A stretch of 57,256 bases of DNA from an uncultured Candidatus Bathyarchaeia archaeon (GTDB lineage Archaea > Thermoproteota > Bathyarchaeia > 40CM-2-53-6 > RBG-13-38-9). The DNA is taken from assembly GCA_964598945.1 (NCBI GenBank), contig CAZRDQ010000001.1:1-57256 (forward strand), given 5' to 3'. A program made the translations under genes and the position numbers. Below the pieces are notes generated by a model. That model saw only the letters and a program-made list of their open reading frames with translations. It was not told where the DNA came from and made no database searches. Numbering within the stretch: position 1 is the stretch's first letter; the number at the start of each line of letters is the position of its first letter. Shown here one piece after another: positions 30,253-32,768 of this stretch.

Positions 30253-31766
30253 ACTTCACAATGCTCCTTAGAAGCTTCTTGACGTCCGGAACCTTCTCTT
30301 TCTTCGCCAGTCTGGCTGAGAATGTGGCGATCTTCGGCAGGTACTTTGAGAAGACATCAAGACGCTTCCTCTCCCTCTCCATGTGGTGTTTCCTTGATAA
30401 GAAGATCGCCAGCTGCCTTGCAACCTCTCTCAGAGCGTTCAGGATTTCATGCTCCACCTCAGGTCTGTCCGCTATGAACTCCTTGCCAACTGTCTTGTAT
30501 GGGATCTTGAGGCTGCAGATATGGATAAAGACCGCCAGTGGAGTATCGGGCAGGACCTTGTAGTGCCGCCAGTTCATAAGTTCGTTCGCGACTTTGTATG
30601 AGACATCGCTCGCCTCATCGAATAGCAGCGGGATCCTGTTCGCGAATCGATAGAGAAGGATCCCGTCCGGCCGCAGTATCTCGCCCCCATGTGCTACGCC
30701 GGCTTCAACTATGAATGGAAAACCTGAGTATGCTGCTGGTCTCCTCTGGTGGACAGCGACGAACTCTGGGTTGAGCTCTTTCTTGATCCCGGTCTTCAGA
30801 AGCTCAGTTCCCAGAGGGGAGAGGCAGCTGGCGTCGGGTGAGAGAAATCCGTCATAGTTCTTGATCGCGTTAACCAGCTTCACAATCTCATCCCGTGTGA
30901 GTTTCTTCGGATTCTTTCTTTCTCCAACATCGGCAAACTCCAGGAACCTTTTTGCTGTTGTCTCGCCGACTCGCTGGAAGTGTCGCTTCATAAAGTCCCT
31001 CATGGATCTTGATCTGGTCGCTTCAATCATCCTCTTGAGCGTCTCGATGTCGATTCCATGAGGATGCGGCGAGGTCTCAGTGGGCGGCTTGGGCATCAGG
31101 GTCGTGGCCCTATCAAACTTGTACAACCTGCCCCTTGGATCGACGAATGTCAGGTTGGCATAGGGCACAACTATCGCGGTCTGTTTCAGATAGTCAAGTA
31201 TCTTAGGCATCGCTCTCGGATAGTCGGCTTCGGTGGTGAACTCCACGACGGTCCCATGCCACTTGGACTTGTTGCTATGCACCTTATGCTTGACGACTAT
31301 CGGTCTGTTCTTCTGGATATCCATCGTTAGTAGGTACTCGTACATCTTTGAGGTGCCTATGCCTGAGATGATCCTTGTCTGGCCGTGGGTTGTGATCTGT
31401 CCGTAGAGCACGGCCATCTTCCCGCCCAGACCGAAGGTCCCGCGGGTCTGCCTAAGCTTGTACTTGGAGCCAAAAAGTACCTGGCCGAATGCTGAAGGGA
31501 TAACCTCAGAGGGCAAGCCTGACCCATTATCCTCAACTCTGATCCTATACACGCAGGGGTCTGCGGCCGTCTCTGACTCCGGAGACATTCGGATGTATAT
31601 GTCTGGCAGTATTCCGTGAATCTCACAAGCATCCAGAGAATTCTCAACAAGCTCCCTGATCGTTGAGTATACCGCTCTGGAAGGATTCGTGAAACCTGCA
31701 ATATCCCTATTCCGATAGAAAAAAGTCTGAGGGGCTGATTTCCCTGAACTCCTCAGTCGTCATCAT
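30179..31766 (-). CDS. top6B: DNA topoisomerase VI subunit B; the frame is broken by one extra T in a T6 run (31719-31724)
   Basis: The track ORF (469 aa, starting at 31588) lacks the ATP-binding N-box. In the same frame upstream I read [32 protein letters not shown]. ATG 31766 gives MMTTEEFREISPSDFF in the neighbouring frame. Deleting one T fuses them into a roughly 528-aa Top6B. Confidence 0.8.
31722..31739. repeat. 18-bp direct repeat, copy 1 (AAAGTCTGAGGGGCTGAT), encoding ISPSDF of Top6B on the minus strand
   Basis: Identical string at 32697..32714, 975 nt away. Confidence 0.9.
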
Positions 31767-31775
31767 TCACCTCAT

Positions 31776-32768
31776 TCACGATGCTAACTCATCATACCAC
31801 TTTCTCAGTATACTAATCACCGAATCTCTTGTGAAGCAGTTTGCGAATAGACCCTCACATGAATGCTGCCTTCTATTTAGTTGTTCTTGATGGATTCGTA
31901 GCATCAGTTGAAGCAGTATAGCTTTCTGATGGCCATACCACAATCCAGTTCTGTTTTTCTTGCGCACAACTAAGGCTTCTTTTAAAAATCCAGCTTGTTT
32001 TGCAAAGGATCTCAATGCTGCTAATCCAGAGATCTTCACTCCATTTCGCGTTACATGAGCATGGATACCCAGATGAAGAAGCAACTCTGCTACTTGTTTG
32101 GTTATCATTGCATTTTGTGAGGCAACGAAAAGGTAGCTCTCGACTGTGTACTTGTGATATTTCGTCCTTCTTACTGAGACTATCGCGGAGCCTTCAGTGT
32201 CCGCGAAAATGCGCAGAACTTGAGAAGTCAACTTATGCGATGAAGTGATCGTAGTCATCATTTCTTCTGGAATTCCATTCTTTATGTTGTATGATTTCAG
32301 GTCTTCAGCGACTTGCACGTAACTGAGTCGGACCACATTTCCCGTTTCGTGAGCGCGAACTCCGTAGACCTGGTTTACTAGAGTTCCGAATCGTCTCCTT
32401 AAGTACTGAAGATTATTAGTGAACCCAACTTGATACCTGTAAATGTAACCTTCAGTGAGTATCATGATCAAGAGTCTTATTTTGGATGGTGTAAGCGTTT
32501 TTGAGGACGAAGGTATCTCATAAGGTGAATAGACGTTGCCGATGCGATAGCCCTGTCTGTAAAGCAATGAACCTGCTTCCGAGCGGGTCCGAAGTCGCAC
32601 CCCTTGCCCAAGTAGCTCCTTCCTGACTTTGCCATATGAATGCCCGCAAAGCTTGGTGATTCCATTGATGCTGTATCCAGAACGATACAGATCTGGAAAG
32701 TCTGAGGGGCTGATCTCCTGGAAGCTCTCAGACATCAGTTTTTTGCACCTGCCGTTGGGTTGCTCCAT
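31776..32768 (-). CDS. Free-standing LAGLIDADG homing endonuclease fused in frame to a copy of the first ~24 codons of top6B
   Basis: The N-terminus MSESFQEISPSDF is a Top6B N-terminus. An HTH-like segment LYRSGYSINGITKLCGHSYGKVRKELLGQGVRLR follows. The LAGLIDADG-type motifs are LLIMILTEGYIY and LRIFADTEGSAIV. The stop lies 8 nt before the GAGGTGA-ATGATG restart of top6B. Confidence 0.65.
   Translation of the reverse strand: MEQPNGRCKKLMSESFQEISPSDFPDLYRSGYSINGITKLCGHSYGKVRKELLGQGVRLRTRSEAGSLLYRQGYRIGNVYSPYEIPSSSKTLTPSKIRLLIMILTEGYIYRYQVGFTNNLQYLRRRFGTLVNQVYGVRAHETGNVVRLSYVQVAEDLKSYNIKNGIPEEMMTTITSSHKLTSQVLRIFADTEGSAIVSVRRTKYHKYTVESYLFVASQNAMITKQVAELLLHLGIHAHVTRNGVKISGLAALRSFAKQAGFLKEALVVRKKNRTGLWYGHQKAILLQLMLRIHQEQLNRRQHSCEGLFANCFTRDSVISILRKWYDELAS
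32697..32714. repeat. 18-bp direct repeat, copy 2
   Basis: Identical to 31722..31739. The flanks are related but diverged (TTCCAGGAG versus TTCAGGGAA). Confidence 0.9.

Follow-up and report, generated by a model that had tools for sequence, protein, structure and literature searches.

In phage T4, Bonocora and colleagues are said to have described in 2011 a cassette of MobA and the gene 60 bypass in the gene for the large subunit of topoisomerase II, and MobA is an endonuclease of the HNH type. Paquin, Laforest and Lang reportedly found in 1994 a mobile element with its own open reading frame (ORF) in the mitochondrial atp6 gene of Allomyces, together with a duplicated piece of the host gene, and similar endonuclease insertions with duplications of the 3' end are present in fungal mitochondria. 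In T4-like phages the MobA/gene 60 system combines a homing endonuclease in a topoisomerase gene with a 50-nt translational bypass, which is thought to protect against the nuclease, and recurrent as well as decayed 'hit and run' forms occur in metagenomes (PMC5009743; bioRxiv 10.1101/2022.08.31.505936). A different class is the 'savior indel' with compensatory low-level frameshifting, for example at the G-run of herpes simplex thymidine kinase (Atkins et al. 2016, PMC5009743). As to Archaea, a -1 frameshift on A AAA AAT is known in fucA1 of Saccharolobus solfataricus, and a review from 2021 names, for recoding in Archaea, a single demonstrated -1 example, with neither a +1 example in a cellular gene nor a topoisomerase (PMC8211752). 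Our literature search on topoisomerase VI with frameshifting or homing endonucleases returned inteins and papers on meiosis only. Here we describe a locus on the minus strand of a contig of 57,256 nt from an uncultured Bathyarchaeia archaeon (GCA_964598945.1, CAZRDQ010000001.1; the whole stretch is called the window below), where a LAGLIDADG endonuclease gene lies in the 5' end of top6B, which encodes the B subunit of topoisomerase VI.

Sequence comparison indicates that the 5' end of top6B does hold a mobile LAGLIDADG cassette, which is polymorphic and brings a replacement start, a replacement leader and a conserved frame-breaking indel, and we hold it probable that this frame-breaking cassette is compensated by ribosomal slippage from UUU to UUC. 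An endonuclease cassette together with a required slippage would previously have been seen only in phage T4 and its relatives. MobA/gene 60 is the closest analogue; the system in the window is not homologous to it and appears to work alike. In both cases a free-standing homing-endonuclease gene sits in the gene for a subunit of a type II topoisomerase and the host gene is restarted behind it, and in both a recoding element with a proposed role in protection from the own nuclease follows just downstream and occurs repeatedly as well as in decayed form. The endonuclease gene and the recoding site are adjacent and co-inherited, with locus L154 as one exception. The main differences are that the window system lies on an archaeal chromosome and not in a phage, in the B subunit of topoisomerase VI and not in topoisomerase II, and that its nuclease is of the LAGLIDADG type with a helix-turn-helix (HTH) domain instead of HNH. 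Moreover, its shift is of 1 nt (rarely -1 or +2) on a U-run without detected stimulators, unlike the 50-nt bypass with its elaborate signals, and instead of a split of the host gene into two proteins there is a duplication of its first 13–16 codons. No homology to MobA or to the 50-nt bypass signals was found, the nuclease being LAGLIDADG plus HTH and the insert in question 1 nt. The features of the locus are as follows (all on the minus strand).

32790, minus: end of the KH-domain gene, then a 54-nt spacer holding an AGGTG Shine-Dalgarno (SD)-like sequence before ATG 32735
32697–32737, minus: direct-repeat copy 1, the resident top6B start (ATG 32735) with the first 13 codons, MSESFQEISPSDF
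31776–32735, minus: endonuclease ORF, 319 aa plus stop, with Top6B leader (aa 1–13), HTH domain and two LAGLIDADG domains
32580–32702, minus: HTH_58-type helix-turn-helix domain, aa 12–52 (Pfam match; three short helices in the AlphaFold2 model)
32439–32474, minus: LAGLIDADG motif 1, LLIMILTEGYIY, T94-E95-G96 invariant in the family
32178–32216, minus: LAGLIDADG motif 2, LRIFADTEGSAIV, A178-D-T-E-G182 invariant in the family
31767–31778, minus: endonuclease stop TGA (31778–31776), then the cassette-supplied SD-like GAGGTGA (31773–31767)
31722–31766, minus: leader 2 or repeat copy 2, the replacement 5' coding end, MMTTEEFREISPSDF, 0 frame
31719–31724, minus: T6 run, proposed +1 shift site (0 frame UUU UUU CUA)
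31707–31709, minus: TAG closing the 0-frame reading (…DFFLSE, stop)
30179–31720, minus: +1-frame body of Top6B with its GHKL ATPase and transducer domains; the first start codon in this frame is the internal Met at 31588
31721–32696, minus: whole insert relative to the empty allele, 976 nt, comprising endonuclease codons 14–319, stop, SD, leader 2 and the extra T
27574–30252, minus: top6A (892 aa), whose intein has a LAGLIDADG_3 domain; 74-nt overlap with the 3' end of top6B

The direct repeat which the original prediction had pointed out is present as described: 31722–31762 and 32697–32737 share 41 nt at 80% identity, with a perfect 18-nt core and a spacing of 975 nt, and by our estimate the chance expectation for such 18-mers in 1.5 kb is about 1e-5. 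Copy 1 now serves as the N-terminus of the endonuclease. The 330-aa frame from 32768 to 31776, which had been taken as the endonuclease ORF, does exist on the minus strand, but ATG 32735 (MSESFQ...) is the likelier start, because the upstream ATG 32768 (MEQPNGRCKKL, 32736–32768) is unconserved, being out of frame by a 1-nt difference in the 97%-identical L001, and because the majority of the members of the endonuclease cluster have 319 aa. The TGA stop at 31776, the GAGGTGA and the ATGATG (31766–31761) are all located where they had been reported, and the layout of TGA plus GAGGTGA is also present in L001 and L003–L005. The leader 2 DNA is ATG ATG ACG ACT GAG GAG TTC AGG GAA ATC AGC CCC TCA GAC TTT. 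Its frame had been thought to run into the Top6B body, which is wrong, as it reads MMTTEEFREISPSDFFLSE and ends at the TAG at 31709–31707. The suggestion that translational coupling keeps the host gene expressed is thus incomplete: coupling fits the layout, but with leader 2 out of frame the expression would need recoding as well. As in the Allomyces atp6 element, host codons and endonuclease share one continuous reading frame and the cassette replaces the displaced gene end; unlike that element, which is mitochondrial, lies at the 3' end and involves no recoding, the cassette lies at the 5' end of an archaeal nuclear-type gene, where a new start and a frameshift would be needed.

The uninterrupted state is found in the same population. 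Four contigs from four samples (L158–L161) carry an in-frame top6B in the order KH gene, top6B and top6A, and encode a 526-aa protein, MSESFQEISPSDFFYRNRD…, which was found in the 90%-identity cluster of the truncated Top6B. Their DNA reads ATG TCT GAG AGC TTC CAG GAG ATC AGC CCC TCA GAC TTT TTC TAT CGC, i.e. a leader identical to copy 1 of the window that is joined in frame (T5) to the body. As had been anticipated, insert-free relatives define the empty site, which is GAC TTT^TTC TAT, and the window equals the empty allele plus 976 nt (32696–31721) placed after codon 13 between the Phe codons F13 and F14; correspondingly, the homology of copy 1 to the empty allele stops after GAC TTT (32697). 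The upstream flanks of the empty alleles are 97.6% identical to the window, and the identity is 96–100% in the first kb of the body (past the first 100 nt, which include leader 2) and drops to 86–97% toward the 3' end. Within 25 nt 3' of the insertion site there are three synonymous differences followed by more than 200 identical bases, a pattern that resembles a short co-conversion tract. If the two repeat copies recombined, the product would have T6, and the T5 allele is therefore the uninvaded state and not a deletion product. The comparison with the empty alleles supports the earlier idea that the cassette uses the promoter, start and first codons of the host gene and brings its own ribosome-binding site and replacement 5' end. 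The SD sequence of the host gene is used by it as well. Presence or absence at one conserved host site within a population is a trait of mobile elements, and in a neighbour-joining tree of Top6B, which was used only qualitatively, the carrier alleles are scattered among in-frame alleles, many of the cassette copies being decayed.

In the window the two frames meet at GAC TTT TTT CTA, with T6 at 31724–31719 where the empty allele has T5, and removal of one T gives …SPSDFFYRNRD…. Upstream of this point the +1 frame of the body (…ELVENSLDA…) holds only stops and no ATG, GTG or TTG. The public gene calls (NCBI/JGI/ENA) and the ORF listing begin top6B at an internal Met (469 aa, 30179–31588), without the ATP-binding N-box, and on other carrier contigs it is called as 412 aa, the full length being about 529. 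The same GAN TTT TTT CTA is found in L001 and L029 (endonuclease 96–97% identical), L002 (41%) and L025 (38%). A pattern specific for the out-of-frame state, searched in species-representative genomes and metagenome contigs, matched nine of the former (eight labelled Bathyarchaeia/Bathyarchaeota) and 45 of the latter, 42 of which are top6B 5' ends. After removal of duplicates there are 44 T6 alleles, with an endonuclease upstream that is full in 14, partial in 10 (in L021 only the N-terminal HTH is retained) and absent by tblastn in 20; in several tblastn-negative alleles short endonuclease remnants are visible by eye, such as …WYDAILS plus stop (L033/L047) and …SWYNELKGE plus stop (L020). Thus 24/44 T6 alleles have an endonuclease upstream vs 0/85 non-redundant in-frame alleles. 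Among the 80 species-level relatives closest to the Top6B of one carrier, 76 are in frame, and the frameshifted state is therefore a scattered minority.

These T6 alleles were collected with the T6 pattern, and a less biased sample is given by the ten endonuclease-found loci that have downstream sequence. In nine of them the Phe-Phe site is frame-broken. The break is +1 nt in seven, either as TTT TTT C (L001, L002, L025, L153 and L156) or as TTC TTT C (L155 and L157), while L151 has -1 nt (GAT TTT TTT ATC, T7 where T8 is needed) and L152 has +2 nt (GAT TTC TTT TCT ACA). Variants of the T5 site include T6, T7 and TTCTTTTC. The three kinds of indel fall on a single dinucleotide but belong to separate cassette lineages, which suggests recurrent events at this site.

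The body behind the break is under strong purifying selection. Between frameshifted alleles its ratio of nonsynonymous to synonymous substitution rates (dN/dS) is 0.03–0.14, at dS values up to about 1–2, and between frameshifted and in-frame alleles it is 0.04, matching the value among frameshifted alleles. In nearly every T6 allele it stays open for about 500 codons or as far as the contig reaches, L038 stopping at 308 codons. In 40 non-redundant T6 alleles the variability falls on third codon positions, which belong to the 0 frame as far as the T-run and to the +1 frame beyond it, with the switch exactly at the run; the conservation downstream is partly forced by the search pattern, and FYRNRD is likewise kept, with synonymous variation, in the endonuclease-found loci. 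Since the run is a homopolymer and some of the metagenome-assembled genomes (MAGs) may derive from long-read assemblies, the extra T might be taken for a sequencing or assembly error, or the alleles for dead pseudogenes, and public calls do treat the gene as N-terminally truncated. We regard this as hardly credible. The same extra base recurs in dozens of independent assemblies (JGI, ENA, Logan and NCBI), T5 in-frame alleles are assembled correctly from the same kinds of data, the same population included, the T6 state correlates with the presence of the cassette, and a dN/dS of 0.03–0.14 across a dS of about 1 between frameshifted alleles speaks against error and pseudogene alike.

In most alleles the body frame has a TAA 4–5 codons upstream of the run and no conserved start, and a strong SD with a start codon is present for the 0 frame; it follows that the protein would have to begin in the 0 frame and continue in +1. 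Two frames under purifying selection with a switch at a conserved UUU UUU C or UUC UUU C are the pattern which programmed +1 frameshifting would be expected to leave. Another way to a slightly shorter Top6B would be a non-canonical start in the body frame or re-initiation after the 19-codon leader ORF, and indeed a GTG or CTG lies in the body frame a few codons before the run in L002, L018, L023, L024 and the window (CTG), and several leader-2 copies have no canonical start themselves. We think it improbable, given that L001, L003, L004, L017, L021 and L022 have no start at all between the body-frame TAA and FYRNRD, that leader 2 is conserved as amino acids (changes at third positions) right up to the T-run with a strong SD and start in most alleles, and that loci detected without the pattern also keep FYRNRD after the run as protein sequence. 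The frame could also be restored in the RNA, by polymerase slippage on the T-run or by an intron of 976 nt (e.g. of the bulge-helix-bulge type) joining leader 1 to the body. Excision of 976 nt between GAC TTT and TTC TAT would yield an in-frame mRNA exactly like that of the empty allele, and LAGLIDADG ORFs in introns often continue the reading frame of the exon before them. However, a strict search for the bulge-helix-bulge motif and co-folding of the junction windows, within +-40 nt, found none, many T6 alleles without leader 1 and endonuclease still keep the extra T and an intact body, and leader 2 is under selection at the protein level. Polymerase slippage is in turn unlikely because L155 and L157 carry the extra base in a three-T run, TTC TTT C, and even T6 is short for such slippage. 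A restoration at the RNA level thus seems to us very doubtful, more so than an alternative start.

For the slippage of ribosomes we propose the following course. Initiation would be at ATG 31766 of the cassette, and MMTTEEFREISPSDFF would be read first; once tRNA-Phe occupies the P site at the second UUU, the ribosomes would slip +1 to UUC and go on with UAY (Tyr) and YRNRD… to full-length Top6B. The anticodon of tRNA-Phe is GAA, and UUC is a better match for it. The UUC UUU C of L155 and L157 would narrow the shift site to UUU-C, the variant of L151 is by its sequence a classic U UUU UUU -1 site, and in L152 either a +2 move from UUU to UUC or a -1 move with one additional Phe would be required. 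Among the Phe-Phe pairs elsewhere in the window TTT TTT is avoided, being used in 0 of 10. The predicted trans-frame tryptic peptide is EISPSDFFYR preceded by Arg, unique to the cassette allele, where the empty allele would give MSESFQEISPSDFFYR. In addition, translation of top6A may be coupled to that of top6B through the 74-nt overlap and scale with it. Like fucA1, top6B would be a cellular archaeal gene in two overlapping frames joined at a homopolymeric slippery site; unlike fucA1, the shift would be mostly +1, in an essential gene, widespread across Bathyarchaeia-like MAGs and tied to a mobile element.

The endonuclease itself belongs to a small family. A word-indexed protein search gave 2 relatives only, while an exhaustive HMMER search revealed the family, with eight proteins below 1e-30. 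P0002–P0006 are full-length relatives, 34–45% identical to the window copy, which open with Top6B-like leaders (TFQEISVAD, ETFEEISPAD, AAFSEISPSEF and ASFAEISPSE), and P0008, P0012, P0016 and P0021 are internally deleted remnants. Homologs at unrelated loci would have spoken against a top6B cassette; instead, all eight members (8/8) below E 1e-30 have their examined loci at top6B. Every readable endonuclease locus lies directly upstream of top6B, and the intact N-termini all begin with a Top6B-like leader. The identification as endonuclease made at the outset is borne out for the window copy by HTH_58 (E 2e-5) and by LAGLIDADG_3 (aa 173–231, E 2e-4, 0.4–0.6 bit under the Pfam cut-off), and each of these two Pfam families is matched in 6/8 family members, with 4e-6 as the best E value for LAGLIDADG_3. 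At the ends of the LAGLIDADG helices, T-E-G (E95) and A-D-T-E-G (E181) are invariant in eight members with 33–45% identity to the window copy, so that each helix would provide a conserved acidic active-site residue. The AlphaFold2 model (predicted local distance difference test score 69) has the HTH followed by two alpha-beta-beta-alpha-beta-beta-alpha units. Among the 50 Foldseek PDB matches listed, almost all are LAGLIDADG endonucleases or engineered variants, including the TliVMA intein endonuclease, I-Tsp061I, E-DreI and I-OnuI, the exceptions being two WhiA entries; their probabilities are 0.84–1.0 but the template modelling scores are low, 0.2–0.4. Searching PDB chains by sequence with the endonuclease profile produced no significant match; among PDB entries LAGLIDADG was recognised by the fold search alone. 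The model is consistent with a double-motif monomeric LAGLIDADG fold, for which site-specific cleavage is predicted. A viral origin was rejected, with no endonuclease relative in 2.9 M viral contigs, and so was an intein at this position, as the endonuclease ORF ends in TGA and has no Intein_splicing match, which top6A in the same window does have. The SD of leader 2 is formed in several relatives by the final codons of the endonuclease (…ELKGG plus stop, AAG GGG GGA TGA), which fits translational coupling. In all members the junction between leader 1 and the endonuclease is at most 1 codon from the first Phe codon (DF/PDLY, AD/CVSLY, EF/RVLY, AD/HMTLY and SE/LGQLY, the slash marking the junction), and thus coincides with the position of the indel.

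It is known that LAGLIDADG enzymes cut in the centre of a site of about 20 bp and that homing inserts the element at or beside the cut. Leader 2 would otherwise keep an intact target after insertion, and a single-base indel in the centre of the target would make the carrier allele uncuttable, the change of spacing by one base blocking cleavage (self-immunity). The indel could then have been selected for immunity, or be left as a repair scar of self-cleavage; it would be tolerated because the Phe-Phe codons form a slippery U-run, and when the endonuclease gene decays the frameshifted 5' end would stay. The recurrence of different indels and the coincidence of the indel with the insertion point support the immunity reading, and we give about even chances that the indel is present for target protection or as a scar of self-cleavage. 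The narrower version, in which the cassette cut its own allele, imprecise repair left +1, -1 or +2 nt and the survivors were rescued by slippage on the U-run, is a plausible proposal that we put somewhat below even. The indel may also be unrelated to immunity, as a neutral hitch-hiker or an attenuator of Top6B dosage that arose in the founder of the cassette. T6 outlasts the loss of the endonuclease by a long time, and L154 combines an in-frame leader 2 with an intact endonuclease, as such a reading would allow; but at least three types of indel (+1, -1 and +2 nt), with two contexts for +1, at the same dinucleotide in different lineages indicate recurrence rather than one founder, and the indel site coincides with the insertion point of the endonuclease. 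We consider it rather unlikely on this account.

Several points weigh against the proposal of a frame-breaking cassette with compensatory slippage. The slippage rests on sequence comparison, and the immunity role is derived from position and linkage only. No stimulatory signal was found, neither a slow A-site codon nor an RNA structure: RNAalifold gave no consensus structure downstream of the run in 22 diverse T6 alleles, the z-score of the minimum free energy being 0.35 vs 0.38 for in-frame alleles, and the 0-frame A-site codon CUA is not rare, making up 12% of the Leu codons in the window, for which reason the idea of a hungry codon was rejected; tRNA genes are absent within the window. The efficiency of slippage may thus be modest or low, which fits the class of savior indel plus compensatory frameshifting (Atkins et al., PMC5009743). 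As in that class, a protective homopolymer indel would be combined with slippage on the run that is enough to supply an essential product; unlike there, the threat would be a selfish nuclease and not a drug, and the state is long conserved in a cellular gene. A second, divergent copy of top6B may exist elsewhere in these genomes. Moreover, L154 (about 2340–2420) alone combines an intact endonuclease with an in-frame leader 2 (GAC TTT TTC TAC), and L005 (2900–2990) is in frame with a copy-2-type leader MATAEEFREISPSDFF and an SD of the cassette type, GGTGAGGTGAATG; the TGG TAC GAT upstream in L005 is similar to the WYD at the endonuclease C-terminus, so that this allele is possibly a remnant of the cassette returned to frame. 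The in-frame state of these two despite cassette or remnant means that the indel is neither obligatory nor the sole solution. Finally, leader 2 lacks a canonical start in L025, L152 and L157, which may be decaying alleles or users of coupled re-initiation.

Some details were noted at these loci. The leader of L154 has two unusual substitutions, EIGVAD for EISAAD (EIGVADFF), which may be an alternative alteration of the target. In L025 (2190–2230) an ATA follows a good SD at leader 2, in L152 (1400–1460) leader 2 has no start and is in frame with the endonuclease TGA, and in L157 (about 3430–3500) ATC/CTG stands in place of the leader-2 start.

If the narrower version, a scar of self-cleavage rescued by slippage, is true, the shift would be the first +1 frameshift required for an essential cellular gene in Archaea, and a strategy so far restricted to T4-like phages, the pairing of a homing endonuclease with a recoding element inside a topoisomerase gene, would have arisen convergently by an independent origin. 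The top6B cassette would be a second independent case in which a selfish nuclease is accompanied by a device for translational recoding in such a gene, and the idea of recoding as nuclease immunity would become testable beyond T4. Archaeal recoding is almost unexplored, and the top6B cassette offers a widespread +1 recoding candidate under purifying selection, in an essential gene and with in-frame controls in the same population. Furthermore, gene callers silently truncate top6B (469 or 412 aa vs about 529), which affects the annotation and the completeness estimates of Bathyarchaeia, and the endonuclease family, with a defined conserved target of 20–30 bp, could yield new meganuclease specificities.

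Other insertions were seen in the topoisomerase VI genes. The intein in top6A that had been noted before is present and contains a LAGLIDADG_3 domain, and it is also polymorphic in the population, since L158 (1861–2976) encodes a 371-aa top6A without intein vs 892 aa in the window. In the T6 allele L032 (838 onward, plus strand) Top6B has a large intein-like insert right after ELLENS, the ATP-binding N-box, and Top6B of L014 has an insertion in its N-terminal part. As to taxonomy, the carriers among L155–L157 and L022 include MAGs labelled Thaumarchaeota and one labelled Acidiferrales bacterium, the latter being probably a binning error.

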